IMG/VR virus record: IMGVR_UViG_2734482786_000005
Location: 1 to 16,166 of that record
Strand: one strand, 5' to 3'
DNA from: a virus
Lineage: Duplodnaviria > Heunggongvirae > Uroviricota > Caudoviricetes
DNA length: 16,166 nt
The notes beneath the pieces were generated by a model. It searched no databases. It saw nothing but the letters and a program-made list of their open reading frames with translations, and was not told where the DNA came from. Of the stretch, positions 1,255-16,166 are shown piece by piece (the stretch's first letter is position 1; the number at the start of each line of letters is the position of its first letter). The position numbers and the translations under genes are program-made.

Positions 1255-1368
1255 ATAAAACCGGGTGATGCAAAAGTAGCCATTTGATTCACAAGGCCAT
1301 TGACGCATCGCCCGGTTAGTTTTAACCTTGTCCACCGTGATTCACGTTCGTGAACATGTCCTTTCAGG

Positions 1369-1444
1369 GCCGATATAGCTCAGTTGGTAGAGCAGCGCAT
1401 TCGTAATGCGAAGGTCGTAGGTTCGACTCCTATTATCGGCACCA
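1369..1444 (+). tRNA. thrW: tRNA-Thr, anticodon CGT (thrW-type)
   Basis: 76-nt sequence GCCGATATAGCTCAGTTGGTAGAGCAGCGCATTCGTAATGCG...GGTTCGACTCCTATTATCGGCACCA with the usual D-loop and T-loop motifs (GGTTCGA), a CGT anticodon in the loop, and a 3' CCA. Lies directly downstream of proA, as at the enterobacterial thrW locus. Confidence 0.93.
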
Positions 1445-1446
1445 TT
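1428..1446 (+). repeat. attL core (3' end of tRNA-Thr)
   Basis: TCCTATTATCGGCACCATT at the tRNA 3' end is repeated as TCCTATTATC-GCACCATT at 15615-15632. Confidence 0.75.
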
Positions 1447-1461
1447 CTAACGTTTCCCCAA

Positions 1462-1546
1462 GTCTACTAAAGTTCACTGAAACCCCTTATACTCTGCGCT
1501 TTACAGCCCCTTTTAGTATTTCTACGTCTACTAAAGTTCCCTGAAA
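1462..1546 (+). repeat. Two 21-bp direct repeats between tRNA and int (putative arm-type recombinase or accessory-factor sites)
   Basis: GTCTACTAAAGTTCACTGAAA at 1462-1482 and GTCTACTAAAGTTCCCTGAAA at 1526-1546, one mismatch, 64 bp apart. Confidence 0.5.
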
Positions 1547-1557
1547 TCTACGGTCGT

Positions 1558-1609
1558 TTGGGGGTACTTATGGGGGTATTTGTTGTTCGGTCTATAGGAG
1601 GTACCCCCA
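1558..1609. promoter_or_regulatory. TGGGGGTA-type motif cluster upstream of int (putative integrase arm sites or int promoter control)
   Basis: TGGGGGTAC at 1559-1567, TGGGGGTAT at 1571-1579, and inverted GTACCCCCA at 1601-1609. The same tandem pair, TGGGGGTACTTTTGGGGGTAT, recurs at 15532-15555 near attR. Confidence 0.45.
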
Positions 1610-1610
1610 A

Positions 1611-2825: not shown

Positions 2826-2952
2826 CTGGTTGAGTATACAGTAGTAGACTTTGAGCGATTAAGAAAAGGCTGTGTCTAGGGTCGCTCCCGAAAATCCGTA
2901 CACCTCGGCGGACTGGCACAGCCACTACGGTAGAGGGCGCAGAGGTGTGCGT

Positions 2953-3723
2953 ATGGTTGATATTCATGCCGAATTAAATGAATACAAAAAAGAGTTTATT
3001 TATTTACGTGATTTTCTTGATGATGTATTTAAAGTTGTTGATGCTAATATTTCAGAAGTCATTACCTGGATACTCAAGAGAATAAATACAGTAAATCCAG
3101 GCATTACCCTGTACACAGTAAATTCATTAAATGAGGTGGAGCTTTATTCTTCGGATCCGTTTGAGTGGAGATCTGATTTTAACTTTCTTTATGCAAAACT
3201 GGATACGGTTAGGGAGCGTGGTTGTTTACCTTGTGAGAGGGATGAGAGTGGTTTTCTGGTATCTGGTTATTGGGAAGATGCCGAATTTGAGGCAATGGGA
3301 TTCAGAAGAAATGAAATTTTCGAAATTTTCCCAGAAATCCTTGACGGGTTAATGAATCTGGAATGTGCTGACTCTTCTGAAAATAACGAGGCGCAAGGAA
3401 GCAATATTGAACATAAAGAGTTGCGTACAGATGATGATTTTTTATCCCGAATTGCAATGCTGGAAAAAGAAAATGAATCGTTAAGGGCGCGGGTAAATCA
3501 GTTAGAAAAGGAGCGCCCGATTTTGCTAAAGGCGTATCGTGATGATGACCCATTGTATCTGGCTATCGATATTAGAAACAGAGAGTGGGCCAATTACGAC
3601 CCAGAGAATGATCGCGCAACTAGGGGAAACCAGGGCGCGATTACTACTGAGCTTGAAAAACGAGGTTTTACCTCCCGACAGGCCGCATCTATTGAGCTTG
3701 TCGCCTGTCCTATCAAACGATGA
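2953..3723 (+). CDS. hypothetical protein (AT-rich accessory gene between int and alpA; predicted coiled-coil segment)
   Basis: ORF track gives 2872-3723. I prefer ATG at 2953 (MVDIHAELNEY...) because GAGGTG lies about 7 nt upstream. Sampled lines are clearly AT-rich. Contains an LEKENESLRARVNQLEKE heptad-like stretch. No family recognised. Confidence 0.55.
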   Translation: MVDIHAELNEYKKEFIYLRDFLDDVFKVVDANISEVITWILKRINTVNPGITLYTVNSLNEVELYSSDPFEWRSDFNFLYAKLDTVRERGCLPCERDESGFLVSGYWEDAEFEAMGFRRNEIFEIFPEILDGLMNLECADSSENNEAQGSNIEHKELRTDDDFLSRIAMLEKENESLRARVNQLEKERPILLKAYRDDDPLYLAIDIRNREWANYDPENDRATRGNQGAITTELEKRGFTSRQAASIELVACPIKR

Positions 3724-3763
3724 AGCCTTACCCTAGTGGTATCTCATGTTTTGTTCGCGTCTC

Positions 3764-3840
3764 ACCCTAAGGGTAATCAGACCTCACCCTTAGGGTATTT
3801 TTGTATGCTTTCCCATCAATTTTACTATTACCCTTAGGGT
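3764..3840. promoter_or_regulatory. Three copies of palindromic ACCCTWAGGGT upstream of alpA (putative operator array)
   Basis: ACCCTAAGGGT at 3764-3774, ACCCTTAGGGT at 3786-3796 and 3830-3840, centre-to-centre spacing 22 and 44 bp. A degenerate half-site (TACCCTAGTGGTA) lies at 3729-3741. Confidence 0.5.
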
Positions 3841-3943
3841 AAAAATATTCCCGATTACCATTAGACCTGAGAGCATTAAAATATTCGTTATTTCTGTGCC
3901 ATGATTACCTCGTCAAATTGAGTAGACGTTATGAGGTAAATAT

Positions 3944-4141
3944 ATGTCAAATACGCTTATTCGTTTAACGGAAGTTCAGCGTAGAACTGGATATAGCAAG
4001 GCATGGATTTATCGCCTTATGGGGCAAGGTAAATTTCCTGCATCAGTTAAAATTGGCTCGCGAGCGATTGCTTTCGTTGAGAGTGAAATTGACGAGTGGA
4101 TTAATCAGCGTATTGCGGAATCACGCGGAACAGCTACCTGA
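3944..4141 (+). CDS. alpA: AlpA-family phage/island transcriptional regulator (excision activator type)
   Basis: 65-aa ORF with GAGGTAAAT RBS. The sequence ...RLTEVQRRTGYSKAWIYRLMGQGKFP...VESEIDEWINQR matches the AlpA-family HTH pattern as I recall it (CP4-57 AlpA-like). Confidence 0.85.
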   Translation: MSNTLIRLTEVQRRTGYSKAWIYRLMGQGKFPASVKIGSRAIAFVESEIDEWINQRIAESRGTAT

Positions 4142-4219
4142 TTAAATGGCTACGGGGCCAGAAGTCCCAGCTATCCACCAGCAAATAAAAAGTAACTTAA
4201 TTCGATAGCAGGAGTTTTT

Positions 4220-5020
4220 ATGAAACTGCGAAAAACGCCCGTACAGGGGCAGGGCTTCGTTCGGCCTGAAAACCAGAGCCAACAAAATTTCTGCGAAATT
4301 ATCCCAGTTAGTTCCGGCGTTATTGGCGGGCGTGAAACCAATATTGTTAGCGCCAGAGCGTTGCATAAGGTGCTGGGTGTGAAGCGTGATTTCACAACTT
4401 GGATTAAAGGACGCATTGATGAGTACGGATTTAAAAAGGGCGTGGATTTTGAATTCGTAGAAAATTTGACCTCCCCCAATCCGGTGAGCGCAAAATCTCG
4501 CCAACGTGTAGAGCACGACTACCTGAGCACTATCAACATGGCGAAAGAACTGGCGATGGTCGAGCGCACCGAACAGGGGCGCGCCGTTCGTCAGTACTTT
4601 ATCAAATGCGAGGAGGAGCTACACAAGGTAGCGCCAGTGCGGTCCGCAGTGTTACGCCGGGAACTGAAAGCCCGTATCACAGTTGCCAGCTACTTTAAGC
4701 CAATGTGTGCCGCGCTGGAGGCGTACCGGGCTGAGCTGGGTAAAAACACTCTACAGCACCACTACACCACGGAAGCCAATATGCTGGCGCGTATCGTGCT
4801 GGGTGGCATGACTGCAAAACAGTGGGCGCAGGCGAACGGCATCACAGGCGAACCACGCGACCACATGAGCACGTTGCAGCTTGAGCATCTTTCTTACCTT
4901 GAGCAGAGCAATATCACGCTGATTGAGTTAGGCCAGGACTACCACCAGCGGAAAGCTGAATTAATTCGTCTTTCGCAGCGTTGGTTAGCCCGTCGCATGG
5001 AGGAAAACAGCCATGTGTAA
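4220..5020 (+). CDS. phage-associated protein, tentatively AntA/AntB-type (antirepressor-like) N-terminal domain
   Basis: 266-aa ORF with AGGAG 6-7 nt upstream of the ATG. The stretch SARALHKVLGVKRDFTTWIKGRIDEYGFKKGVDFEF resembles the AntA-type signature as I remember it. The assignment is tentative. Confidence 0.5.
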   Translation: MKLRKTPVQGQGFVRPENQSQQNFCEIIPVSSGVIGGRETNIVSARALHKVLGVKRDFTTWIKGRIDEYGFKKGVDFEFVENLTSPNPVSAKSRQRVEHDYLSTINMAKELAMVERTEQGRAVRQYFIKCEEELHKVAPVRSAVLRRELKARITVASYFKPMCAALEAYRAELGKNTLQHHYTTEANMLARIVLGGMTAKQWAQANGITGEPRDHMSTLQLEHLSYLEQSNITLIELGQDYHQRKAELIRLSQRWLARRMEENSHV

Positions 5021-5479
5021 CGCTCTGACCGTTACAAAAAGAAAAAGCGCCCCGTTGCCGGAGCGCCTTTGTGAACAAGTCGCTTACTGCGCCATATTGC
5101 TTACTGTCTACGAGGCAGATTATAGCGTTGTGGTCGTACAGAGTGAAGGCGCTGATCACTGTTATCACAGTAAGCCAGAAATGCAGAATATTTCGCTGCA
5201 AAATGCCGTTGGCCAAGCTGTCTGGAAAGCAAAAAATACTGCTGGTGGCGCGACTGATGCAATTTTTTCTGGTTGCCAGGTGCTGATCAATCTGATGTCT
5301 GATTTCGTTCTGGATAAAACAAAGGCGACCGCAGAGGGCCGCCAGTGGGAAAGCTACATACTTGAACGCACCACCAACAATGCCACATTTGCGGCTGGTG
5401 GGCAATGTGTCAGCTTTGCACCAATGACTCTAGATTTAACTGAGGGGCATTATGGTGAATATGCTGGCTTGCTGGTGGG

Positions 5480-5680
5480 CTATTCCTGCTCTTTAACATC
5501 GCCATGCCGCGATGTTTTCCAGGTATGTGGCCCTAATTTTGTGCGCCTGTACTCTTTCAGGAACGTCTCAAGGACAAACGCACACGGCGCGAATCTGTCT
5601 GATTCATGCTCGCGCGTCATATTTTTGCGACGTCTCTTCCGGGTTGGTGATGGTATTTTTGTTAACTTTTTATTGTTCAT
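5480..5680 (-). CDS. small basic hypothetical protein (66 aa)
   Basis: Minus-strand ORF. I prefer the internal ATG at 5678-5680 (MNNKKLTKIPSPTRKRRRKN...) because GGAGG lies 7 nt upstream. Lys/Arg-rich N-terminus. Lies downstream of, and co-oriented with, the RHH gene. Confidence 0.35.
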   Translation of the reverse strand: MNNKKLTKIPSPTRKRRRKNMTREHESDRFAPCAFVLETFLKEYRRTKLGPHTWKTSRHGDVKEQE

Positions 5681-5737
5681 AATGGCCTCCTGCATAGCAA
5701 TGCGCCGTAGTTCCTCACACCACGGCACTGATAGTTT

Positions 5738-5917
5738 TTATCCTTTAGATTCTATGCCGCGTTGCTGTAATTCTTTGCGGATTATTCGCTTTATCCAGGC
5801 TGCAAGAGAATCATCGCCGTCCTGTTGTTGTGCTTTTTCCATCTTTTCCCGTAAGTCAGGATCTAAACGGAACTGGAACGGAGGATTACCACGCCTTTCG
5901 CTTTTGTGTGCTGACAC
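5738..5917 (-). CDS. putative ribbon-helix-helix (Arc/MetJ-like) DNA-binding protein, 59 aa
   Basis: Not in the ORF track (under 60 aa, GTG start). My manual reverse-complement translation is VSAHKSERRGNPPFQFRLDPDLREKMEKAQQQDGDDSLAAWIKRIIRKELQQRGIESKG. GAGGTG lies 8 nt upstream of the GTG. The beta-strand then two helices pattern is typical of RHH repressors. It is divergent from the replication operon. Confidence 0.5.
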   Translation of the reverse strand: MSAHKSERRGNPPFQFRLDPDLREKMEKAQQQDGDDSLAAWIKRIIRKELQQRGIESKG

Positions 5918-5944
5918 GTCAATTACACCTCATGTAATGTATTT

Positions 5945-5960
5945 ATGTGTAATTACACAT
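5945..5960. promoter_or_regulatory. Perfect 16-bp palindrome ATGTGTAATTACACAT in the divergent intergenic region (putative operator)
   Basis: Self-complementary 16-mer flanked by further TGTAAT/ATTACA half-sites (5921-5970). Lies between the minus-strand RHH gene and the plus-strand operon starting at 6056. Confidence 0.55.
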
Positions 5961-6055
5961 TACACACAATCAGAGCAAAAAGTAAAGCCCTGCAAGTGTC
6001 GGTACCACTGGCAGGGCCTCTAACCACCAACGATAGCAATATTATCGAGGTAGCT

Positions 6056-6592
6056 ATGAGAAATTATACCCCACACCCGCAAGGGCGGGACTCGCACAAC
6101 CTGAATAAACCCGATGTAAAAAACCTGTTGCTCGCCACTGCCAGCCAGGGCTATGATTTATACGCACCAGCAAAATCTGGTGCCGGGATTGGCGTCCTGG
6201 TATTTAACGAAGCGCACAACACGCGCCCTGCGTGTTTTTTTGTGCCGGATAGTCACACCTTATCAATGGTGGGCTGTATGGGGGCGGAGCAATCCGCGCC
6301 GGGTTCTTCGTTAACCGGTTACGCCAACCCCGTACAGTCCACCGCCAGCGAAATTGGCGTTTCCTGCGGTGGGTTTATTAACCCTAACGAAGAGGCTGCC
6401 AATATGGCTACAGTCCCTACCCTTGTACATTCTCACACTGTCTTTATCTGGCGCTTTATCATCTTTGGCGCGTCAGAATCCCAAATCATCCACGTCACCG
6501 CCTGGACGGAACGCGAAGCGCGTAACCATTGCCCGTCCTGTTGTGTCGCTGTATTCGCCGCCCGTATTCGTCAGGAGGTGCGCCATGATTAA
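6056..6592 (+). CDS. hypothetical protein (first gene of replication-module operon)
   Basis: ORF track gives 5945-6592. I prefer ATG at 6056 (MRNYTPHPQG...) because GAGGT lies about 5 nt upstream and the longer version would overlap the operator region. No family recognised. Confidence 0.5.
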   Translation: MRNYTPHPQGRDSHNLNKPDVKNLLLATASQGYDLYAPAKSGAGIGVLVFNEAHNTRPACFFVPDSHTLSMVGCMGAEQSAPGSSLTGYANPVQSTASEIGVSCGGFINPNEEAANMATVPTLVHSHTVFIWRFIIFGASESQIIHVTAWTEREARNHCPSCCVAVFAARIRQEVRHD

Positions 6593-6878
6593 TCTGTCAA
6601 TCTCTGACCTTAACCGCATTCAGTATGACGAGAAATTTACCGGGAGCGTAAAAGCATTGAGGAAGCAGGCTGGATGTGCACGACTTATTAAGCCGTTAAG
6701 GTGTCATCATGATGATGATCCGCACTTTACCGGACGTATGGTGAATCACTACAAAAAAGGCGTTGAGGTATCCTCTGAACAGCTACGAGCTGGTTGCTGT
6801 TTCGGCACACCACCGGAATTTAGCGAACTGCTGACCCGTTGCGATTACCGGATCATTCAGGGGGAAAGTCATGGGTAA
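6585..6878 (+). CDS. hypothetical protein (97 aa)
   Basis: Internal ATG of track ORF 6354-6878, with AGGAGG 6 nt upstream. The start overlaps the stop of the preceding gene, suggesting translational coupling. MINLSISDLNRIQYDEK... Confidence 0.5.
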   Translation: MINLSISDLNRIQYDEKFTGSVKALRKQAGCARLIKPLRCHHDDDPHFTGRMVNHYKKGVEVSSEQLRAGCCFGTPPEFSELLTRCDYRIIQGESHG

Positions 6879-7071
6879 TCAGCCAGCAACAATGACAATT
6901 ACCCTGAATGTGCCAGATGATTTCACCGGGCGCGTACTGGTTTACCTGGATAAAGGGAAAGTGAAATCACAATGCCGACTGCGAAATAATGAAATAGTAA
7001 GTACGGTAGAAGGCTTTTCTGAACTCTGTATTCGTGCAGGAATAAAACCGGAACTGCTGACAGGAAAATAA
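6871..7071 (+). CDS. hypothetical small protein (66 aa)
   Basis: ORF with a GGGGGAAAG purine-rich RBS. Overlaps the previous stop by 8 nt. Sits in the operon with the primase-like gene. Confidence 0.45.
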   Translation: MGNQPATMTITLNVPDDFTGRVLVYLDKGKVKSQCRLRNNEIVSTVEGFSELCIRAGIKPELLTGK

Positions 7072-7075
7072 AACC

Positions 7076-7366
7076 ATGAAAAAGAAAAATTCTGGCTTTA
7101 CTGCCAGCGGCCTCTCTCGGTCTGCAATTCGCTCTGGCGATATTTACCGCGACACCAGACGTGGGGGACGAGTGGTTATTCGTCACGTTACGCCAGGAAA
7201 TATCACCTACCGCCGTGAGGCTTACGAATATGACTGCGTAATGCCGCGCCGTCAGTTTGAGCGTGATTTTATTCTGGTGGAAAACAAAGAACAGGCAGTA
7301 GCGAGACGTGCAGCCTCGAGTATTAAAAAAATCCGGGCAATGTTGGTAGCTGGGGGTAAGAAGTGA
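7076..7366 (+). CDS. hypothetical protein (96 aa)
   Basis: ORF immediately upstream of the replication protein, with its stop overlapping that gene's GTG start. Basic protein. No family recognised. Confidence 0.5.
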   Translation: MKKKNSGFTASGLSRSAIRSGDIYRDTRRGGRVVIRHVTPGNITYRREAYEYDCVMPRRQFERDFILVENKEQAVARRAASSIKKIRAMLVAGGKK

Positions 7367-9495
7367 AAAACGCGCCGAATTTAAAATATCAGCCGAAGGA
7401 TAAATTCACTGAGGCAATCATTTTTGCCGGGATGGATGCTTACGCTCACGCTCAACACTGGATTGAAAGCGAAGGACGGAAATATGGCGATAGCGTGCCG
7501 CCTGTTTACCTGGGGCCAAAGCAACTGGCAGATCTGGCTAATATCCGCATTGTCGACGATGAACGTCGTTTTGCGCGCGTCTATCTCGCGGGGGAGATCG
7601 AACCAATCCAGATTAATGCTATCGCTGAAAGGCTGGCGCTGGCTGGCGTAAAGGATGCGAAATTATACAAAGGTATCCCTGACCAGGATCCGGAGAACTG
7701 GCGCGACTACCTGCAACGGATCCGTGAACAGGCAGAGCGCGGGGAAACCCTGACTGAAGGAATCGGAATAGCTGGTGGCTCACCCGGTAAAACAGGCCCC
7801 ATGAAACCGCATATTACCGAAAAAGACGGGGCGCTCTGGTATATCGAGCCAATCCCCAACACCAGGGCAGAGGAGATGAATTATAAAGAAACCTGGCTGA
7901 GTGACCGGATGCGCACGGCAGGTATTGGTAATGACGGAAGGGAGGCGTATCTGATTATTGAAATGATCCCGGAAGGGACACAAAAAATTATTTACGAAGC
8001 GATGCCGCGCAATGAAATCGGTATGCCCGCAGGATGGGCGCGATTACGTGGGCGGGGAGTTGCAATCACTACCAGCGCCCATTTATTGAACAAACTGGCG
8101 GAATACCTGCAACGTCATGGAGATCGCACGGTGTGGGAGGTCACATCAACAGCAGGTTGGCATTGTGGAGCCTATGTTATGCCTGATGGCGAGGTGATTG
8201 GTGTGCCTGATCGTCCCGTAGCATTCTGCGGCGGATCTGCCGCCATCAAAGGCTATATTGTCAGGGGCACGGTGCATGAATGGCGAAATAATGTTGCTTC
8301 TCTGATGCGTGGCAATCACTCAATGATGCTTGGGGTGCTGGTCGGGCTGGCAGCCCCGCTAAATTCCCTTGTGGGGGGTAGTTGTTTTGGTATTCATCTT
8401 TTCGCGCAGTCGTCAGCGGGGAAAACCACGACTGTGGAGGCCGCCACCAGCCTTTATGGCGACCCTGAAATGCTTAAACTCTCGTGGGATGCCACCCGGC
8501 ACGGGTTGACAGTGGAAGCCGCTGCACGTAATGACGGTTTTATCCCTATTGATGAAATTGGTCAGGGAGGAAGGGTTAATGACATTGCGCAATCCGCCTA
8601 CAGCCTGTTTAACGGTGTGGGCAGGATTCAGGGGCGCAAGGACGGCGGCAATCGTGCGGTAATGCGCTGGAAAATAGCGGCACTAAGCACCGGAGAAGAA
8701 GATTTTGAAACCTTCCTGTTAAAAGGGGGAATTGCCCCAAAGGCAGGGCAACTGGTGCGACTGCTAAGCATTCCCTTTACCGATACAACGGTGTTTAACG
8801 GTTATGACGATGGTGATCAACATGCCAGGGCCATAAAGCGACTTTCATCAAATTATTGTGGCGCTGCGGGACGTGAGTGGGTGCGCTGGTTATCCGCTCA
8901 CAAGGAGTTGGCTATCAACACCACTTCAGATAAAGAAAATGCCTGGCTGGGAAATCTGCCTGAAAATGCCTCGTCACAGGTAAGGCGAGTGGCATCGCGA
9001 TTCGCCATGCTGGATGCAGCCGGAGAGCTTGCTACCGCAATTACTGGCTGGACAGCTGAAGAATGCCGGGAAGCAACGCAACGGGCTTTTGATGACTGGC
9101 TACAGGATTTCGGGCTGGAAAACCGGGAAAAATATCAGGTCATCAGTCGCGCCCGTGACTTTATTCAGCGCCATGCCCTGAGTCGTTTTCAGCCTTATAC
9201 CTACGGGAAAAGCAATGGGGATATGGATAACCACTATGCATCCCGTATAAGCAATCTTGCAGGCTATCTTGTCAGCGGTAAGCGTGAGGATGGAAAACCC
9301 GAATATCACATTATCCCGTCAGTGTTTGATAGCGAAATTTTATGCGGTATATCCAGGAACTTTGGGTGTCAGGCGCTGGAAGAAGCCGGAATGCTGGTTT
9401 GTGCAGAACCTGGTCGCTGGACATCGAAAACAGTGAAGATTAACGGAACACAGCAGCGATTTATCGTGCTGATTGATCAGGCAGAAGACGAATAG
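7363..9495 (+). CDS. replication protein, primase/helicase-like with SF3-type P-loop NTPase domain (DUF927-like, P4 alpha / PICI Pri-Rep analogue)
   Basis: 710-aa ORF with GTG start at 7363 (the first ATG is further in at 7432). Walker A-like FAQSSAGKTT and a downstream acidic IPIDEIG (Walker B-like) motif. Size and position, immediately upstream of an iteron array, fit a replication initiator. Confidence 0.7.
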   Translation: MKNAPNLKYQPKDKFTEAIIFAGMDAYAHAQHWIESEGRKYGDSVPPVYLGPKQLADLANIRIVDDERRFARVYLAGEIEPIQINAIAERLALAGVKDAKLYKGIPDQDPENWRDYLQRIREQAERGETLTEGIGIAGGSPGKTGPMKPHITEKDGALWYIEPIPNTRAEEMNYKETWLSDRMRTAGIGNDGREAYLIIEMIPEGTQKIIYEAMPRNEIGMPAGWARLRGRGVAITTSAHLLNKLAEYLQRHGDRTVWEVTSTAGWHCGAYVMPDGEVIGVPDRPVAFCGGSAAIKGYIVRGTVHEWRNNVASLMRGNHSMMLGVLVGLAAPLNSLVGGSCFGIHLFAQSSAGKTTTVEAATSLYGDPEMLKLSWDATRHGLTVEAAARNDGFIPIDEIGQGGRVNDIAQSAYSLFNGVGRIQGRKDGGNRAVMRWKIAALSTGEEDFETFLLKGGIAPKAGQLVRLLSIPFTDTTVFNGYDDGDQHARAIKRLSSNYCGAAGREWVRWLSAHKELAINTTSDKENAWLGNLPENASSQVRRVASRFAMLDAAGELATAITGWTAEECREATQRAFDDWLQDFGLENREKYQVISRARDFIQRHALSRFQPYTYGKSNGDMDNHYASRISNLAGYLVSGKREDGKPEYHIIPSVFDSEILCGISRNFGCQALEEAGMLVCAEPGRWTSKTVKINGTQQRFIVLIDQAEDE

Positions 9496-9527
9496 CACAA
9501 CCTACGCTCGCAGAGGGTCAAAAATCG

Positions 9528-9801
9528 CGGGATATGCGGGATATCGGGATATGAAAAATATATTGCAGAAATATCAGTTATTTATGTGTTGTTGTCGTAT
9601 CCCGCTGTATCCCGCCGTATCCCGGTATTTAGGTTTACGAGTGGTTGTAAAACAAACAAAATAACCGTATCCCGGAATGTATCCCGCAATATCTTATTGA
9701 TGCATAAGCAAAAAAAAACTTACCGGGATATGGCGGGATATGAAAAATCACATAACACCATGAAATAAATAAGTTTTTTTGTTCATATCCCGATATCCCG
9801 G
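9528..9801. repeat. Iteron array (putative origin of replication): about 12 copies of CGGGATAT / ATATCCCG in both orientations, with A/T tracts
   Basis: Direct tandem CGGGATAT(G/C) at 9528-9553; GTATCCCG(C/G) three times at 9598-9624 on a roughly 10-bp period; further copies at 9668-9687, 9724-9742 and 9785-9801. Poly-A and poly-T runs at 9710-9718, 9774-9780 and 9805-9826. Track ORFs 9473-9664 and 9586-9768 lie on these repeats and are not believed. Confidence 0.65.
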
Positions 9802-9952
9802 TAAAAAATGTTTTTTTACGCCTTATAGAGTACAGAAAAAAGATTGTTCAAATTTTGTATTACGATTGACTACTGTCAGCCATCCCACCCGGAAAAGGCA
9901 TAAAAGCTGACAGGTAACTGACAATGAGACAGTTTTATTTTTACGTGCCGAT

Positions 9953-10510
9953 ATGACGGCAACAATAATGGGGCAGAGCATGACAAAACTGACCATTAAC
10001 AGAAAACCGAAAGGTATTTACGGCACGCCGCAGAAAACGACGCAGGCGGCACAGAAGCAGGATAAAACCACATCGGCACATAAAGTGATGCCCGGTAACC
10101 AGAAAGCGCAGCAGAAGCCCACAGGGGCGACACCGTGGCGGCATATGACCAAACGCCAGCGCAAAAACCGCAGGCGCGTTAACCGCCTCACTGAGTTGTG
10201 GCCTGACTTATTCTGCAGGGAAGCACCGAAGCCACTTAAGGTGGGGATATTCAATGACCTGGTGCAGGATATCGCCGTCAGGGAGCTGGCATTCGGTCCA
10301 GGGGCATTACGTGCGTCACTGGCATCTTATGCGCAGTCACCGCGCTATTACCGAGCCCTGGTTGCTGGTGGGGTGCGCTATGACCTGAAAGGCCAGCCGT
10401 GCGGCGAGGTGACACCACAGAAACAGAACGAGGCAGAAATGCGGCTGATGGCGCTGAATGAGAAGCGCAAACGTCAGCGCCGGGCAGCAAAGGAGAAAAC
10501 AGGCGCATGA
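9953..10510 (+). CDS. ProQ/FinO-domain RNA-binding protein
   Basis: 185-aa ORF. The segment LWPDLFCREAPKPLKVGIFNDLVQDIA...LRASLASYAQSPRYYRALVAGGVRYDLKGQPCGEV parallels the ProQ N-terminal FinO-like domain as I recall it (PLKIGIF..DLV...R.DL.G.PCGE). The start is uncertain among ATGs at 9953, 9968 and 9980. Confidence 0.7.
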   Translation: MTATIMGQSMTKLTINRKPKGIYGTPQKTTQAAQKQDKTTSAHKVMPGNQKAQQKPTGATPWRHMTKRQRKNRRRVNRLTELWPDLFCREAPKPLKVGIFNDLVQDIAVRELAFGPGALRASLASYAQSPRYYRALVAGGVRYDLKGQPCGEVTPQKQNEAEMRLMALNEKRKRQRRAAKEKTGA

Positions 10511-10794
10511 TTCACGACAGCAAAGCGGAAGCACTGGAAGCGCGTGGTCTGTACCGGAGAGCGGCGGAAAGATGGGCAGAAGTCATAATGCGAGTGGATG
10601 GTGATAAGGCTCGGGAGGAGGCGGCAAAACGTCGCGCGGAATGTATCCGCAAGGCAGCCCGCCCACCAGCAAAGCTGGATAATTTCGAAGAGATGCGCGA
10701 AACCATCAGCCAGGCACATGCTGGTATGGGATTACATCAGCCCAATGGTAAGGCATTCAGGAAATACCCCGGGGCAAAAAATTACAATCCATGA
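10507..10794 (+). CDS. PerC-family transcriptional regulator-like protein
   Basis: 95-aa ORF whose start overlaps the previous stop (ATGA). The N-terminus MIHDSKAEALEARGLYRRAAERWAEV matches my recollection of PerC/Pch-family proteins. Confidence 0.65.
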   Translation: MIHDSKAEALEARGLYRRAAERWAEVIMRVDGDKAREEAAKRRAECIRKAARPPAKLDNFEEMRETISQAHAGMGLHQPNGKAFRKYPGAKNYNP

Positions 10795-10798
10795 GAGA

Positions 10799-10826
10799 GG
10801 CCGGGATTTTACCCGGCTTTTTTGTG
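10799..10826 (+). terminator. Rho-independent terminator-like hairpin after the PerC-like gene
   Basis: GGCCGGGATTTTACCCGGC stem-loop followed by TTTTTTG, immediately 3' of the stop at 10794. Confidence 0.6.
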
Positions 10827-10995
10827 TCAGCAAAAAAGCCCACAGACAGCAGTGTTGCGGGGGGGGGTTTCAGGTGGTTGAAGTCATTGGGAAGAACGTG
10901 AACATTACGCGCAAATGTTTCACAAATTGCAATAAAATGGATTGTTATTTCAGTTTATGCAATCATGAGCATTGCTTTGATCAGGAGAGATGATT

Positions 10996-11163
10996 ATGAG
11001 AAAAGCCAGCGTAAAACCCGTTTTACTCGCTCGTGAGCAGATTGAAGCATTACAGCGCATCCAGGACGAAGAGCGTCAAAAATCTGTGCTTGGTGTGGCC
11101 CCGTCGATTCATGTTATTGCCAGGCAACTGATGGACAAGGCACTTAAAGAGGTGAAACTGTGA
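10996..11163 (+). CDS. small hypothetical protein (55 aa)
   Basis: Not in the ORF track (under 60 aa). AGGAG at 10984-10988, 7 nt before ATG 10996. My translation is MRKASVKPVLLAREQIEALQRIQDEERQKSVLGVAPSIHVIARQLMDKALKEVKL. The stop overlaps the GTG start of the next ORF. Confidence 0.45.
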   Translation: MRKASVKPVLLAREQIEALQRIQDEERQKSVLGVAPSIHVIARQLMDKALKEVKL

Positions 11164-11432
11164 AATTAAATATCAGAGTGGATAAACGCCAGCTATGGCA
11201 GAAAAAAGAGAACAGTGAGGCATTCAGGGATTTGCTGGTGGAAAATCTTCAGCACCGTTTCAGTGGAGAGCTGCCAGACGCGCTGGGGAAAAAACTGGAA
11301 TCTCTGACGGTGGAAATTGGCGATTATGGTTTTGTTGATGTTGAAAGCACGACTGCCAACACAGAAATCGTAAAACAGGTCGTCAACGATGTAATGAAAA
11401 CCACGCTTAGCCAGCCATCCTGGCGTAACTGA
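11160..11432 (+). CDS. hypothetical protein (90 aa)
   Basis: GTG start overlapping the previous stop (GTGA), suggesting coupling. Acidic protein. No family recognised. Confidence 0.45.
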   Translation: MKLNIRVDKRQLWQKKENSEAFRDLLVENLQHRFSGELPDALGKKLESLTVEIGDYGFVDVESTTANTEIVKQVVNDVMKTTLSQPSWRN

Positions 11433-11531
11433 ATCCGCAAGGGGCGGTGATTGCCCCTCTCCGCCATACCCACAACGAATTCCTTTTTCGCATGAAGTGA
11501 ATGTTTATCGTATATGCATGAGGTGAGCCAC

Positions 11532-12056
11532 ATGTTGATGAGTAAAGCCGAATACGCCAAATACAAAGGTGTAAGCCGCCAGACAGTTTACGACTGGATC
11601 GAGAAAGGCGAGGTGGTCATGTCGGGTAAAAAAATTGATATGGAGGCTACAGAGTGGCGAAACAGCCCATCATCACAGGGAAAAGACACTGTTTCTGAAA
11701 TGTGGCCTGAGAGAACGCTGGAAATGACGTGGGGCGAGTTCTGGAAAGCTGTCAGGGACAGAGACGGTAAAATTCCTGCGCCAGTAACGGACGATGACAT
11801 AAAGCAGCGTGTGCAGGATGCAGCCGGGGAATTAGGCTGGGAAGCACACTTTCTTGATGATGGTGCTATCTGCCTTGAGGATGATGAAGGACAGCATTAC
11901 TTTGAACAATACAATTTGCGGGGTAATGCCAGGCTGGCAATTCGTATGCTGCGCTGTGAACTCTGCTATGTTGCAGGTGATTATCCTGATGAACTTGAAT
12001 CATGGAGCGAGGCAGGACTAAACGCCCTGGCTGAATGGGAGAAAACAGGTCATTAA
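11532..12056 (+). CDS. putative packaging-redirection protein with terminase small-subunit-like N-terminal HTH (Rpp-like), tentative
   Basis: Track ORF 11514-12056. I prefer ATG at 11532 because GAGGTG lies 6 nt upstream. N-terminal SKAEYAKYKGVSRQTVYDWIEKGEVV resembles the lambda Nu1 N-terminal DNA-binding segment as I recall it (KKQLADIFGASIRTIQNWQEQGMPV). About 175 aa, acidic C-terminus. Followed by a repeat array. Confidence 0.45.
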   Translation: MLMSKAEYAKYKGVSRQTVYDWIEKGEVVMSGKKIDMEATEWRNSPSSQGKDTVSEMWPERTLEMTWGEFWKAVRDRDGKIPAPVTDDDIKQRVQDAAGELGWEAHFLDDGAICLEDDEGQHYFEQYNLRGNARLAIRMLRCELCYVAGDYPDELESWSEAGLNALAEWEKTGH

Positions 12057-12063
12057 CGGCCGC

Positions 12064-12390
12064 AAAAAGTGTCAAGTTGAGCAGCTTGCAAGGTTGACAC
12101 TTTACACTCTGAACACGAAAAAGTGTCAACCTCGCTGTAAGCCCCGCCATTACTGGTCTTGCGCCATGTTTGCCACATCAAAAGGCCGAAAAAATCGCGA
12201 AAAGTGTCAAGTTGCCATGCTTAGAAATGCTAAGTTTTGTTAAGGTTTTTCGCGGAAAAGTGTCAACTCAACCTAACGGATCTTAACGCTCACGCACAAC
12301 AGCTGCAGCCAACGTGTAAAGGACTGATGCGAAGCAGGGCAGCTGTCAGCCTGTTATGGTTTGTTATGCCTTACCTGGGGAAAGTGTCAA
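12064..12390. repeat. Array of six AAAGTGTCAA motifs (five direct, one inverted), candidate packaging (cos/pac-type) or protein-binding site
   Basis: Copies at 12066-12075, 12120-12129, 12201-12210, 12257-12266 and 12381-12390 on the plus strand, and an inverted copy TTGACACTTT at 12094-12103. Most are preceded by CGCGAAA or CGCGGAA. A partial copy lies at 12437-12452. Confidence 0.6.
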
Positions 12391-12451
12391 CCGCTACCGT
12401 TTCAGAAAGCTTCAATTGCAGAGCGTTGGCAGCACCTGTCAAAACTTGTCA

Positions 12452-12480
12452 CCCGCCGGCACAGCCAGCGGGAATTTTTT
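12452..12480 (+). terminator. terminator-like GC hairpin plus T-run
   Basis: CCCGC...GCGGG stem followed by AATTTTTT at 12473-12480. Lies between the plus-strand backbone genes and the convergent minus-strand cargo operon. Confidence 0.4.
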
Positions 12481-12599
12481 GCTCTAAACGCTCTAAGTTA
12501 CAGTTGATGTGATCTGTAAACTGCGGTTGCAACTAGTAATCGTATAAAACCATCAGTTGCAGTTTTACCTAACTATAGTCACAATGATAGTTTATATAA

Positions 12600-14099
12600 T
12601 TATACATTGTATGCGAGGTAATCATATAATGCTAAAAGTTTCCGATAATCAGTATGAGATTTGTCCTTAAACTCCCGGACATGTTTTTCTAAATCTTCTA
12701 AGGGTATATGTTCATCATGAGCATTGAAGAAAATAATATTTTGTAATTTGCTATAACTATCAGAATGTTTAGCGTAAATATCTTCAATGGTATGTTCTAC
12801 TATTCTTTGATTCTTGGGTAACCTGGAATAGTTTAGATTTATTAATCTTTTTTGATTTTTCATTAATGATGTTAAGCATTTAACACCTGGGCTGAATTTA
12901 TGAAAAGCATAAGCTGGGAAATATGATCTTTTATTGATGGTGAACTTGTCAAGCAACTCGACAACATGTGATTCCTTATTTGAAATTAGATCAAAATAGT
13001 TTTCCATCATCTCCTGAGGTGTTTGCATGTATATTTTTATAGAGTTAACAGAACCGACGGCTAGAACAAGCTCATCATTTCTGAGTGTCTCCAAATCCCC
13101 AACAAGTTTTACTTTTATGTCTCCACCTTCCTTTATTTTACCAAAGATACTCTCTACTCTGCGTATATCCATTACCGAAACTGGTAAGTGGAGTTGAGCA
13201 AGTTCTTTATATATATCTGAGAAGTTATCTGTAACGATTTTATTAATGCTAATTAACCCTGCATCTTCTACTTCGAGATCGTGAGAGACAATGTTTAAAT
13301 TATCAATACCTTCTTCTCTTTCAATAAGAAGGAAGTTGTTTTTTATTTTTTCTGCAATTTTAGAACGAGGTGGTATGTATGAGAATATTGTTTTTAATAC
13401 TTTTTTTATATTCGGATCACCTATTCTATATCCCATAAATATAATCGGATTATGTATAAACAAGGATAGGAGTTGAGCACGAATTAATTCATATTTTTTA
13501 TCAAAATGAATATAGTCATCACTGGTTATTATTATGGATTCTGGTTTGCTAACGCATCCGTGAATTTTATAAACAGAACCATAAGGATTGCTTAAAAGTA
13601 TATCATTTCCAATAACAGGATTATAACCAATTGCACTTTCGATAAAATTATCATAGTTTGTCGTAATCACAGAGGCAATGTTTTTTGAGGCCTTTACTAA
13701 TTCAGATATTTCATCTTGAACTCCTAATTTTAAATCTGTGATATTAACCACCTGTGAAAGATAGATTTTAAATCTGCTGATATTTGAGGATATATCTTCT
13801 GACTCGTAGTATAAGTCATTGATATATTTGAACTTTCCGTTCCTGTCTGCTTTTAGTGTTGCATCAAAAATTTGCTCTAATTGCGTTGCTACTTTTGGAA
13901 GGTCTACAATACCATCTTTATTGCTGTTTTCTCTGACAAGATCTTTATAGAGTTCATTAGAATTTGTCAGGTCAATACTAATTTTCTCTAAGAGTGCCGG
14001 CCAGCTATAAGAAATTGATAAGTATCTCATGCTGAAACCTGCTCCAACAAATAATATTGGGTGGTTTCTGTAGCCTTTTAGAAAATCCGTTATATTCAT
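12600..14099 (-). CDS. SIR2-like domain protein (putative NAD+-consuming defence effector) with uncharacterised roughly 200-aa C-terminal region
   Basis: 499-aa minus-strand ORF with GGAGG 5 nt upstream of the ATG at 14097-14099. Motifs checked codon by codon: ILFVGAGFS (aa 15-23, DNA about 14031-14057), TTNYD (aa 146-150, DNA 13650-13664), KIHG with His180 (DNA 13557-13565). AT-rich: sampled lines are about 27-35% G+C. Confidence 0.75.
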   Translation of the reverse strand: MNITDFLKGYRNHPILFVGAGFSMRYLSISYSWPALLEKISIDLTNSNELYKDLVRENSNKDGIVDLPKVATQLEQIFDATLKADRNGKFKYINDLYYESEDISSNISRFKIYLSQVVNITDLKLGVQDEISELVKASKNIASVITTNYDNFIESAIGYNPVIGNDILLSNPYGSVYKIHGCVSKPESIIITSDDYIHFDKKYELIRAQLLSLFIHNPIIFMGYRIGDPNIKKVLKTIFSYIPPRSKIAEKIKNNFLLIEREEGIDNLNIVSHDLEVEDAGLISINKIVTDNFSDIYKELAQLHLPVSVMDIRRVESIFGKIKEGGDIKVKLVGDLETLRNDELVLAVGSVNSIKIYMQTPQEMMENYFDLISNKESHVVELLDKFTINKRSYFPAYAFHKFSPGVKCLTSLMKNQKRLINLNYSRLPKNQRIVEHTIEDIYAKHSDSYSKLQNIIFFNAHDEHIPLEDLEKHVREFKDKSHTDYRKLLALYDYLAYNV

Positions 14100-14190
14100 T
14101 TGACCTCCGAGATATATTAGCGGTAATCATTAAAATTTGTAAGAACACAGCTCAAGTATGTATTTAGCTGTAGAGATAAGAATTTACTTG

Positions 14191-15318
14191 TTATTGACCA
14201 TTTGGATAGTAAATTTTCATAAGCCTCTCTTTTTCTTTGTTGAATTCTTTATCAAAATCAATTTTTTTGTCTAAATTAGAATGTAAGTCATTTAACGCTT
14301 TAACAAGAACCCAAGCGCTGTGGTGGATGAATGGGTTTAATCCAATAATGTTTCCTGCAGAATTATCGTCAACTTTCTCAACTGCTAAAATCGCTTGGAT
14401 TTTTTTACAGCTTTCCTGAATATTCCAATCTGAAACATGTAGTAATAATGCAGATAAAGCCATGAGTGGGTTGTTTGCTTTAATAGATGTAGGGGTGTAA
14501 CTAATAATCATACGGAGTCGAGGGTGGTAGTCTCGAATCAGTCTCGCCATTCGAGTAGCTATCTCATATTTTTCGTTGAGAATTGATCTGTCAAATGTTG
14601 ACGTCCCAGAGTCTTTAATTAATATAGTTCTTGCTTTTTTGACTACTGATTTAAGTCTTACATTCCAAAGCTCAGGATTCTCATGACGGTCTAGATAGAA
14701 TTGAGGATGCTTGAAATAAAGAGATTGATATACTTCCTCGTTGATATCGAACCAACTTTTGTTTATGGCGCTGAGATCGACAACATAATTATCATTGTTT
14801 CTCTTATATCTAATCAATGAGGCCTTTGCAAGGTAGATTATGTGAGGGCTTAAATTAAATGTAAAAGTGCCTTTTTCTCTTAAATCTAAGAACCATTGGC
14901 GCATGTTACGTATATCTTCTTGCGTAAAAATCTTCTCCTGAATTCCCGCACAGACCATAAGACCTATTAAGCGTGTCGCTTCAGAACCCGAGCGCATAAA
15001 ATCAATTTGGCCTTCATTTGAAACAACGTTCAACTTATCATCGCCAGTATAAAAATCACAAAATGGGAGGTGAGAGTCTTTACCTAGATTGTCTCGAAAT
15101 GCAAAGTGTGCTTGCTTTACAACTTTGCCGTTACTGAGAGATCTTCCTTCCGAAACGTAATAACCACCAGAAACATTGCATGCCGGGCATTCAACATCCT
15201 CTTTAACAAAATCTCTAAAACTTAGAGAAGGATCTGAGTTGCTACGTTCGAAAAGGTTTTCCAACTGCTTAGCATCCAGCTCACGCTTAAATTTTCTAGA
15301 ATAGGCCGTTATCGTCAT
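14191..15318 (-). CDS. hypothetical protein, partner of the SIR2-like gene (376 aa from the preferred start)
   Basis: Track ORF 14191-15384. I prefer ATG at 15316-15318 (MTITAYSRKF...) because AAGGAG lies 6 nt upstream. Co-oriented with the SIR2-like gene and 91 bp upstream of it. AT-rich. Contains CPACN ... LPFCDF cysteines. I see no Walker A and no TIR-like signature. Confidence 0.65.
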   Translation of the reverse strand: MTITAYSRKFKRELDAKQLENLFERSNSDPSLSFRDFVKEDVECPACNVSGGYYVSEGRSLSNGKVVKQAHFAFRDNLGKDSHLPFCDFYTGDDKLNVVSNEGQIDFMRSGSEATRLIGLMVCAGIQEKIFTQEDIRNMRQWFLDLREKGTFTFNLSPHIIYLAKASLIRYKRNNDNYVVDLSAINKSWFDINEEVYQSLYFKHPQFYLDRHENPELWNVRLKSVVKKARTILIKDSGTSTFDRSILNEKYEIATRMARLIRDYHPRLRMIISYTPTSIKANNPLMALSALLLHVSDWNIQESCKKIQAILAVEKVDDNSAGNIIGLNPFIHHSAWVLVKALNDLHSNLDKKIDFDKEFNKEKERLMKIYYPNGQ

Positions 15319-15531
15319 TTCGGTCTCCTTTCGAAGGGAGCTTAACTTTATCATAGGATGATCATAAAGGGAGCTGTACGGCAAACATCACTAAGGTTGG
15401 GCCTGAAACACAAATTCCCTAAGTGCAATTTTGACGTCTAACTTACTTGATGTGCTTCAAGGCGGTTCTTACATTGTGGTATCAACAACAATAGAATGTT
15501 TTTTAAACAATTTAGATAGCAACAAGCAAGT

Positions 15532-15555
15532 CTGGGGGTACTTTTGGGGGTATCT
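15532..15555. promoter_or_regulatory. TGGGGGTAC-TTT-TGGGGGTAT motif pair near attR (matches the motif pair near int)
   Basis: CTGGGGGTACTTTTGGGGGTATCT at 15532-15555 matches TGGGGGTACTTATGGGGGTAT at 1559-1579. Confidence 0.45.
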
Positions 15556-15614
15556 AATGATTGCGTAATAGTTTTTTTATATACATATCAATGTGTTGAT
15601 TTCTACAATTTGTT

Positions 15615-15632
15615 CCTATTATCGCACCATTT
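15615..15632 (+). repeat. attR core (degenerate copy of the tRNA-Thr 3' end)
   Basis: CCTATTATC-GCACCATT against tRNA CCTATTATCGGCACCATT. Identical apart from a missing G. Confidence 0.7.
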
Positions 15633-15755
15633 AAATCAAGTAGTTACCCCATATTTAAATACACCACGTTTCCTCCTGTGCCGTATTTGTGCCATTGTAA
15701 CCCTGGCAATTCATCAAAATACTGTTCTGACATCAGGCAATGCAGGTGCAGACAT

Positions 15756-16166
15756 TTAAGCCAATTGCTGCCGCCATTCCTTGACGTGGTCAATCAGGGC
15801 GCGGAGCTTTGGTGCAATATTGCGACGCTGTGGGAAATACAGATAGAAGCCTGGAAATTGTGGAAGAAAGTCATCAAGCAGCGATACAAGCTTACCGCTT
15901 TCAATATATGGCCTGAAAGTTTCCTGAGTGGCAATTGTTATTCCTCCGCCGGCAAGAGCCAGCCTCAACATCAGACGCAGATCATTAGTCGTAATCTGCG
16001 GTTCAATCGCAAGGTCGAAAGTTCTCCCGTTTTCTTCAAATGGCCAGCGATAAGGCGCAACCTCCGGGGACTGACGCCAGCCGATACACTTATGGGTATT
16101 TCCCCCGGAGGCGAGAAAGCGCTCTCCACGCCCGGCCGCAAGGATCAGGACGACGGGGGCAGGCAT
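15756..16166 (-). CDS. LysR-family transcriptional regulator, C-terminal effector-binding portion (gene continues beyond window end)
   Basis: Open frame running from the window edge to a stop at 15756-15758. The C-terminal sequence ...LALAGGGITIATQETFRPYIESGKLVSLLDDFLPQFPGFYLYFPQRRNIAPKLRALIDHV is characteristic of LysR substrate-binding domains. Core-like G+C. Confidence 0.7.
   Translation of the reverse strand: MPAPVVLILAAGRGERFLASGGNTHKCIGWRQSPEVAPYRWPFEENGRTFDLAIEPQITTNDLRLMLRLALAGGGITIATQETFRPYIESGKLVSLLDDFLPQFPGFYLYFPQRRNIAPKLRALIDHVKEWRQQLA

Follow-up and report, generated by a model that had tools for sequence, protein, structure and literature searches.

Which gene marks an EcCIMP1-like phage-inducible chromosomal island (PICI) for packaging? 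Kapi1, a P22-like phage, mobilizes EcCIMP1 (Pick et al. 2025, PMC11773190), and islands of the EcCIMP1 type have no identifiable terminase or capsid genes, their packaging mechanism being stated to be unknown (PMC11773190). The DNA analyzed here, positions 1 to 16,166 of the IMG/VR virus record IMGVR_UViG_2734482786_000005, carries an island of this kind; we refer to the whole stretch of 16,166 nucleotides (nt) as the window. The core genes of the island end with a gene for a protein of 174 amino acids (aa), here called the target. The initial annotation had proposed that this gene, with an N terminus like that of the lambda protein Nu1 and a position just upstream of a repeat array, encodes an Rpp-like packaging hijacker. 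Our main new result, as judged from sequence, is that the target is reciprocally paired with a DNA site, the site being clustered beside genes for the protein and the protein being encoded beside clusters of the site.

Six exact copies of AAAGTGTCAA lie 3' of the target gene at 12066-12391 (Table 1), against 0.01 expected, and there are none elsewhere in the window; the predicted repeat array downstream of the gene is therefore real. The site consensus, drawn from 57 distinct instances, is (G/A)AAAAGTGTCAA(CC/GT), an asymmetric sequence of 12-13 bp. The arrangement of the array is conserved as well and reads forward, inverted, forward, unique block, forward, palindrome, forward. The unique block is kept in an alignment of Escherichia, Raoultella, Pantoea, and IMG/VR locus L076, and it could serve for the binding of a second factor or for cleavage. 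Among viral contigs, its extended form occurs in satellites only, the other matches being chance 16-mers, phages included. Beyond the array stands a terminator-like hairpin, a block (12452-12480) that is kept in loci L015 and L017. This hairpin and its U-tract put the array within the operon mRNA as 3' untranslated sequence, at least in the target's own protein family (here family 1).

The site accompanies the protein across genera. Clusters of its 8-mer core are found beside homologs only 38-56% identical to the target in Rouxiella, Raoultella, Pantoea, Lelliottia, Pseudocitrobacter, and Enterobacter, and the core is nearly absent from the remainder of those ~20-kb loci. The converse search gave a matching picture. 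A reverse scan of 2.9 million IMG/VR contigs, for which the query was a divergent pair of the 10-mer alone, recovered 115 loci, and in 107 of them a gene for the N-terminal domain of the target (the N-domain) adjoins the sites. Among the first 80 loci, a target homolog ends 15-100 bp from the sites in 70, and 4 more encode a second family of proteins (family 2; 186-209 aa) with a near-identical N terminus. In 33 of the remaining 35, an open reading frame (ORF) with the helix-turn-helix (HTH) motif of the N-domain lies beside the sites. In two Pantoea loci the exact motif is missing and the one-base variant AAAGTGTAAAC is present instead, with the recognition helix unchanged. The recognition helix and the site are both nearly invariant and offered no informative variants for an analysis of their covariation. 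The reciprocal co-occurrence, this joint invariance, and the fold of the DNA-binding domain (DBD) together indicate that the target very probably binds the array.

Several phage contigs with 13-14 copies of the 10-mer (L156, L175, L183, L189, and L213) came up as possible helpers and were judged coincidental, L189 being the only one examined. L189 is an environmental podovirus in which copies of AAAAGTGTCAA/AAAGTGTAAA surround AT-rich DNA at 6600-7400, ~1.2 kb upstream of a terS-terL-portal operon (genes for the small and large terminase subunits, TerS and TerL, and the portal). The identity of its TerL to those of Pseudomonas, Rhizobium, and Pelagibacter phages does not exceed 45%, and we took its repeat for a coincidental iteron.

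The target gene itself is well supported, being present in the ORF list and placed by PGAP exactly as it was first annotated; PGAP labels the product, WP_000930135.1, "hypothetical protein." The frame in the ORF list is longer (11514-12056), and the start MLMSK of the 174-aa version, at 11532, is kept across 36 aligned homologs. Family 1 consists of 77 clusters of ~170-aa proteins from Enterobacterales (Escherichia, Citrobacter, Klebsiella, Enterobacter, Serratia, Pantoea, Rouxiella, Yersinia, and others), which bear generic labels only ("DNA-binding protein," "helix-turn-helix domain-containing protein," and "Repressor"). A literature search with the protein accessions of the family found nothing. 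On the evidence of these sequences, the target is an uncharacterized satellite-island protein of a conserved, unnamed Enterobacterales family.

The protein is built from two domains. In the 36-member alignment the first 40 residues are near-invariant (MLMSKxxYAxxxxVSRQTVYxW...G.KID), and the remainder is conserved yet variable. In an AlphaFold2 (AF2) model of the target (pLDDT, 89), residues 1-44 form a winged HTH, residues 46-55 a disordered linker, and residues 61-170 a separate alpha/beta domain modeled with confidence. The recognition helix reads VSRQTVYDW, and the Lys-rich wing reads SGKKID. The C-terminal domain (C-domain) is acidic, with an isoelectric point (pI) of 4.45, and has no fold match in PDB or BFVD. 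When it was searched against 1.84 billion representative proteins, there were 20 matches, namely, the target family and 4 long repetitive proteins that we judged spurious. The description of this part of the protein as acidic and unrelated to Nu1 thus stands.

The N-domain is Nu1-like as a member of the same fold class. In an hhalign comparison of the family profile with lambda Nu1, residues 1-33 fall on Nu1 residues 1-33 in register (33% identity; probability, 21%), and the best PHROG of the target is PHROG 57 (E = 1.1e-5; residues 1-39 on profile positions 11-54 of 199). PHROG 57 is the lambda Nu1 family, to which Nu1 itself matches with E = 1.3e-76 over profile positions 11-188. It is also the top family of RppA and RppC (~1e-8, over the N-terminal ~50 residues only) and ranks on top for every other N-domain carrier found. 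The register with Nu1, the modeled winged HTH, and the rank of PHROG 57 bear out the proposed Nu1-like N terminus. The match to PHROG 57 ends at residue 39, so that the oligomerization and TerL-binding regions of the profile are left uncovered. HTH_17 (PF12728; 22.4 bits against a curated cut-off of 27) and TIGR01764 ("excise"; 22 bits against 28.8) both score below threshold, and the winged-HTH class to which the target belongs also includes BldC, MerR, Cox, and AlpA. Relatives beyond Enterobacterales that have the N-domain only (in Bacteroidales, Eggerthellaceae, and others) are mobile-element HTH proteins, and we set them aside as uninformative.

Within Enterobacterales the N-domain is joined to at least four unrelated C-terminal regions, those of family 1, of family 2, and of the types found in loci L021 and L022, with the DBD and the AAAGTGTCAA sites common to all four. 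Family 2 (L041, L084, L092, and L108; also L143, L144, and L217) begins with MSLMSVSQYAKHAGMSRQALYxW...KID, and its hhalign match to family 1 is limited to the first 43 residues (probability, 96%). Its match to PHROG 57 is longer, reaching residue 76-89 with an E value of about 1e-8, and its sites form dense clusters of 5-7 directly upstream of the gene. The N-domain of L021 belongs to a 223-aa Serratia protein (9977-10648), and that of L022 belongs to a 398-aa Lelliottia protein (8165-9361) whose C-terminal part matches unknown-function and endolysin-associated PHROGs. Such swappable C-terminal regions would be expected of an adaptor matched to different helper proteins.

The element that carries the target is 14.2 kb long and is integrated next to proA at tRNA-Thr. 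Its att core is identical to the published core of EcCIMP1, which occupies the same tRNA-Thr/proA site (PMC11773190). An integrase, AlpA, a primase with an origin of replication, a size of 10-20 kb, and att repeats, along with the absence of structural and lysis genes, are the features by which PICIs are recognized, and all are found here. By these sequence features the host element is an EcCIMP1-like PICI; helper-dependent transfer has been reported only for EcCIMP1 with Kapi1 (PMC11773190), and that transfer was reported to be very inefficient (PMC11773190). The E. coli PICI context assumed at the outset is thereby upheld, in that the host element is a PICI-type satellite and the gene occupies the usual PICI position for packaging and interference functions. 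The target gene closes the int-alpA-...-primase-ProQ-PerC-h55-h90 operon, and in all loci the gene occupies this final place in the core operon, following the primase. The module-bearing region of 2.7 kb (9900-12600) is matched in 340 of 5426 complete E. coli genomes (~6%).

The two small genes upstream of the target are conserved with it, h55 across families 1 and 2 in nearly all loci and h90 in the E. coli-type subfamily. A family search gave no match for h90. The h55 protein is an orphan with neither a family nor a PDB match, and its AF2 model, an extended N terminus followed by two helices, is compatible with a ribbon-helix-helix protomer. As modeled, h55 may be a ribbon-helix-helix partner of the target, and the unique block of the array may be what it binds.

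Downstream of the array are the cargo genes. The SIR2 gene and the gene for its 397-aa partner, between the array and attR, likely form a two-gene anti-phage system. The pair is also present in L038 and L096; L102 ends within the SIR2 gene and so has at least SIR2. The array itself forms the border between the core genes and the defense cargo and is where cargo is swapped between island lineages. Up to 12266 the window is ~90% identical to E. coli and E. ruysiae relatives (homology to L004 and L002 stops there), and from 12254 to 15634, through the SIR2 cargo to attR, it is ~94% identical to the L038/L096 islands, in which the target homolog is only 38% identical. The overlap at 12254-12266 places the crossover on site 5, and a breakpoint on one of the sites is compatible with a locus where DNA ends arise. 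In L008, L012, and L021, cargo lies between the gene and the array, with two cargo ORFs in L021.

Table 1. Positions of features in the window. Site numbers follow the order of the array.
Feature	Position	Strand	Remarks
tRNA-Thr	1369-1444		Integration site
att core, left	1428-1437		TCCTATTATC; exactly two copies, direct repeats delimiting the island
Integrase	1611-2825		Followed by a hypothetical gene
AlpA-like HTH	3944-4141		
AntA/AntB antirepressor, Ash pseudogene, Icd-like gene, small ORFs, DUF4222			In this order between the AlpA-like HTH and the primase
DUF927 primase	7363-9495		Followed by ProQ/FinO and PerC
h55	10996-11163	+	55-aa basic protein, pI 10
h90	11160-11432	+	90-aa hypothetical protein
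Target gene	11532-12056	+	174-aa two-domain protein; in the ORF list; PGAP CDS WP_000930135.1 in NZ_CP042250, same coordinates
N-terminal winged HTH (residues 1-44)	11532-11663	+	Nu1/Rpp/Xis (MerR-like) class
C-terminal acidic alpha/beta domain (residues 61-174)	11712-12053	+	Follows the disordered linker
Site 1	12066-12076	+	AAAGTGTCAAG; position kept in relatives
Site 2 (inverted)	12093-12103	-	AAAGTGTCAAC
Site 3	12120-12130	+	AAAGTGTCAAC
Conserved non-repeat block	12135-12162		CTGTAAGCCCCGCCATTACTGGTCTTGC (CTGTAAGCCCCGCCATTACTGG..TTGC); between sites 3 and 4
Site 4	12201-12211	+	AAAGTGTCAAG
Small conserved palindrome	12220-12234		CTTAGAAATGCTAAG; between sites 4 and 5; read from sequence, kept in alignment
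Site 5	12257-12267	+	AAAGTGTCAAC; also the mosaic crossover point
Site 6	12381-12391	+	AAAGTGTCAAC; in part derived from the distant subfamily
Terminator-like hairpin	12452-12480	+	CCCGC-CGG...CCA-GCGGG, then U-tract AAUUUUUUG; RNA fold -14.3 kcal/mol
SIR2 cargo gene	12600-14099	-	Matches PADLOC candidate system PDC-S25 (E = 4e-139); ThsA-like STALD region
397-aa cargo partner	14191-15384	-	No PADLOC match
att core, right	15614-15623		TCCTATTATC

Other members of the island group differ in the surroundings of the module. The IMG/VR contig L135 (12,914 bp), which carries the module, has a 77-bp terminal direct repeat and was thus assembled as a circle or tandem; this is consistent with an excised or concatemeric island, and the ends of the contig are not at the array. 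In the distant subfamily whose members are 38% identical to the target (L014-L020), a canonical intrinsic terminator, AGGCCGCC...GGCGGCTTTTTT, stands ~20-90 bp upstream of the gene start. It ends ~20 nt before the start codon; expression there would require read-through or antitermination. In L015, L016, and L020, the target gene and the array are almost beside proA/tRNA-Thr, with an integrase remnant only; these appear to be decayed islands that have retained the module.

What would such a protein do at such an array? We tentatively favor the possibility that the target is the site-specific anchor of a pac/cosB-like packaging locus, with the C-domain recruiting the terminase of a helper phage. 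The gene and its cognate array would form a two-part module that closes the core of the island. The winged HTH would bind the asymmetric sites, one protomer to each, and the acidic orphan C-domain, held on a flexible linker, would provide an effector or adaptor surface. The resulting complex would mark island DNA for encapsidation by bringing helper terminase to the pac/cosB-like locus; its analogues would be lambda Nu1 at cosB, the TerS of Staphylococcus aureus pathogenicity islands (SaPIs) at pac, and Rpp-TerS at the cos site of cos-type PICIs. Packaging would then run towards the cargo and attR.

Several observations led us to this proposal. The DBD is of the Nu1/Rpp type, the division into domains resembles that of Rpp proteins, and the C-terminal effector is swappable. 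PICIs keep their packaging and interference genes after the primase and the origin, at the end of the helper-induced operon (PMC6092414, PMC11773190), and this is the position of the target. The cargo lies between the array and attR; at the pac sites of SaPIs, too, cargo is found between pac and the island end (PMC12829572). Furthermore, because the island has no recognizable terminase, capsid gene, or cos, a packaging determinant is missing, and the module is the obvious candidate. For a packaging function and terminase recruitment as such, we regard the inference as a moderate one. The initial suggestion of an Rpp-like hijacker survives in the Nu1-type DBD, the acidic C terminus, and the PHROG 57 signature, and it fails in the matter of Rpp family membership; a packaging role is a plausible analogy, neither demonstrated nor based on homology.

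A number of findings weigh against a packaging role. EcCIMP1, the only relative mobilized experimentally, lacks the module, which is thus not universally needed for transfer. The ring core of TerS proteins is absent from the target, in which PHROG 57 matches residues 1-39 only, and the C-domain bears no resemblance to the oligomerization or TerL-binding domains of TerS or to the dimerization domain of Rpp; its fold is an orphan one. The DBD class is equally frequent among excisionases, regulators, and Par proteins. Searches of the window for lambda cosN and cosQ and for P2 cos gave chance-level cosN-like matches, none near the gene, and no cosQ or P2 cos, and a cleavage site is not identifiable in the island. 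No helper is known for this island, and a tblastn search with families 1 and 2, as well as searches with the array DNA and the post-primase module, gave no match among 50,697 phage records. Finally, the upstream position of the array in family 2 is the classic layout of an autoregulated operator.

A wider version of the packaging proposal, which we consider doubtful, would make the N-domain proteins a modular class of hijackers. A Nu1-type DBD would sit on the satellite array and carry interchangeable effectors tuned to different helper terminases or portals, which would account for the packaging of "type C" PICIs that have neither cos nor terminase, and the array would serve in addition as the recombination junction for cargo swaps. 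A preprint on helper-embedded satellites describes a different module.

The operator-like layout of family 2 leads directly to the possibility that the target is a transcription factor, one that regulates its own gene, represses or activates by binding operators, or serves as a roadblock or insulator where the helper-induced core operon meets the convergent cargo. In such a protein the C-domain would be a sensor or an oligomerization domain. Regulators such as BldC, MerR, Cox, and AlpA fall in the same DBD class, two Pantoea members are named "Repressor" in UniRef, and in family 1 the stop codon precedes the array and a terminator-like hairpin facing the convergent cargo genes follows it. We nevertheless think this unlikely, given that the array of family 1 lies within the transcript, on the downstream side of the gene, and coincides with no promoter found by our scan, and that the cargo promoters are 3 kb off, at the attR end. 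Moreover, 5-7 sites over 200-330 bp with conserved spacer elements exceed the needs of a simple operator, and the swapping of C-domains among similar islands would be unusual for a housekeeping autoregulator. An accessory role in maintenance or replication is less probable still, be it as a single-protein partition system in which, as with pSK1 Par, one protein binds centromere repeats, at a secondary origin or crr-like enhancer, or at a fork barrier that shapes concatemers. The island has a primary origin right after the primase gene (9520-9810), where at least 14 iterons of the GTATCCCG/CGGGATAC type in both orientations flank AT-rich DNA (GC, 29-36%), and this iteron is unrelated to the AAAGTGTCAA sites. 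With a separate origin there, the array is not the primary one, and its candidacy as a replication origin was rejected. The module is also kept while the primase varies between DUF927 and D5-like types, which argues that the sites are not primase iterons. A search of plasmids found no homolog and no match to the module, there is no ParA-type partner, and integrated satellites have no need of partition.

The array could alternatively belong to the recombination machinery, with the target as a factor like Xis or other recombination directionality factors (RDFs) that bends the array DNA for excision and integration or for the exchange of cargo modules. This we consider very unlikely. At distances of 3.2 kb from attR and 10.6 kb from attL, and with variable cargo in between, the array cannot belong to the attP arms; AlpA and Int already explain excision in EcCIMP1 (PMC11773190); and the module has no second recombinase. 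An RDF is a third the size of the target, which has a further conserved domain and scores below the cut-offs of HTH_17 and TIGR01764. More improbable than any of these is that the target is a true Rpp, forming a heterodimer with a lambda-type helper TerS and redirecting cos packaging as RppA, RppB, and RppC do. The PICI context and the DBD signature common to RppA and RppC would fit, and when the alignment and profile comparisons with Rpp and Nu1 proposed at the outset were run, the family profile did match the DBD of RppC (hhalign probability, 75%; 36% identity over 33 residues, target 2-34 on RppC 7-39). Nothing beyond the DBD aligned in any of them. With RppA of the cos1-rppA locus L269, hhalign gave a 29-residue DBD alignment (probability, 34%) and no C-terminal match, and pairwise BLASTP gave E = 0.056, again in the DBD only; RppA and RppC are 44% identical to each other. 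Direct homology to Rpp was also sought with phmmer and with a family-profile hmmsearch of PDB, and both missed RppC although a control query confirmed that 6HLK was present. Rpp proteins are 135-154 aa long and have an all-helical dimerization domain with a long coiled coil (alpha4-alpha6; PMC6739421, PMC9026076), and the long alpha6 of RppC also contacts alpha3 of TerS (PMC6739421). In the AF2 model, by contrast, the C-domain of the target is alpha/beta, and the short alpha3 lacks the long helix of the RppC-TerS interface. Of the residues proposed as base contacts in RppC (R21, T22, R25, K29, and R30; PMC6739421), the target keeps R21, has a conservative replacement at R30, and differs at T22, R25, and K29, a pattern that would fit a related DBD recognizing a different sequence. 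The DNA around the gene points the same way. In cos-type PICIs a cosQ-cosN region identical to that of the helper lies ~100 bp upstream of rpp, and repeated R sites are absent (PMC9026076). The window has no such region, and lambda TerL requires cosN to cut; the 80 bp of DNA upstream of the gene is unconserved across genera, being unrelated DNA or a canonical terminator elsewhere. One candidate there for a degenerate cosN, GGGGCGGTGATTGCCCC (11441-11457), is a small hairpin conserved only within Escherichia and was rejected. The argument that the position upstream of a repeat array fits an Rpp therefore holds for the array, which exists, and fails for the paradigm, in which cos precedes rpp and R sites are not repeated. 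With similarity restricted to ~30 residues of the DBD, a different C-domain architecture, no lambda cosQ or cosN, and no DNA in common with phages, the target falls outside the known Rpp family by sequence.

The proposed R3 site of cos-type PICIs does show some likeness to the target sites. In L269 (778-795; EcCICFT073-type cos1, upstream of rppA), the R3-PICI site proposed in the literature reads AGGTGACACCACCACCAC, also given as AGGTGACACCACC. It has a TGACAC/GTGTCA core in common with the target sites (AAGGT-GACAC compared with AAGGTT-GACAC at 12089-12103 of the window), a weak point in favor of a true Rpp. The likeness may reflect related DBDs or chance.

Islands of the EcCIMP1-like kind (type C PICIs) abound in E. 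coli and elsewhere in the Enterobacterales and bring anti-phage defense genes with them as cargo, here a SIR2/PDC-S25 system. For these islands the module is a concrete and testable candidate for the missing packaging determinant, comprising a DBD of the Nu1/Rpp class, a 10-bp site, a conserved array, and a small co-conserved partner gene. If the packaging proposal is true, it would bring a second, unrelated family, with swappable effectors, under the Rpp principle of a TerS-like DBD joined to a domain that binds the helper. It would also provide a sequence signature for annotating such islands and would help to explain why defense cargo immediately follows the array and is exchanged at that point. 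If the target is instead a regulator or a partition factor, the protein and its site are still a clean new DNA recognition system.

Set beside known systems, the island resembles EcCIMP1 (L036), with which it shares the int-alpA-antA/B-Ash-Icd-DUF4222-DUF927 primase left half; both also have a PerC-family gene, which in EcCIMP1 is outside the left half. After the primase EcCIMP1 has another module (P22-like ejection protein homologs and DUF2824) in place of the target gene and array. Winged HTHs of the excisionase/RDF and Cox type (Pukovnik Xis, 4J2N; P2 Cox, 4LHF; RdfS; AlpA) are single-domain proteins of 50-90 aa that act at att arms or promoters, whereas the target has an additional conserved domain of 110 aa and its sites are kilobases from att. 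Like the TerS of lambda, gpNu1, the target has multiple putative cognate sites beside its gene. Unlike gpNu1, it lacks an oligomerization/TerL-binding region, an adjacent terL gene, and cosN, the island as a whole having no TerL or structural genes, and its site AAAGTGTCAA is unrelated to the CGTTTCC-type R sites (R3, R2, and R1) of lambda cosB.

The other two comparisons are with satellite-encoded proteins. Rpp proteins (RppA, RppB, RppC, and RppG; Fillol-Salom et al. 2019, PMC6739421; PDB 6HLK and 6HN7) and the target are both encoded after the primase and origin, near the cargo end. Both have a Nu1-class winged HTH whose recognition helix keeps R, T, W, and G positions and whose wing bears Lys, and in both PHROG 57 is the top, weakly significant family and the C-terminal part is unrelated to TerS. 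They differ in length (135-154 aa compared with 174 aa), in the C-terminal part (three helices with a coiled coil compared with an acidic alpha/beta domain), and in their sites, a single proposed R3 without repeats in cos-type PICIs (PMC9026076) and 5-7 repeated sites downstream of the gene (upstream in family 2) for the target. Genuine homology to TerS and pairing with the helper TerL distinguish the TerS of SaPIs from the target, in which only the DBD is of TerS type and is joined to an orphan domain. Both are satellite-encoded DNA recognition proteins that end a helper-induced operon, and in both the site, SaPI pac or the target array, adjoins the gene, with accessory or defense genes between the site and the island's end (PMC12829572, PMC6092414).

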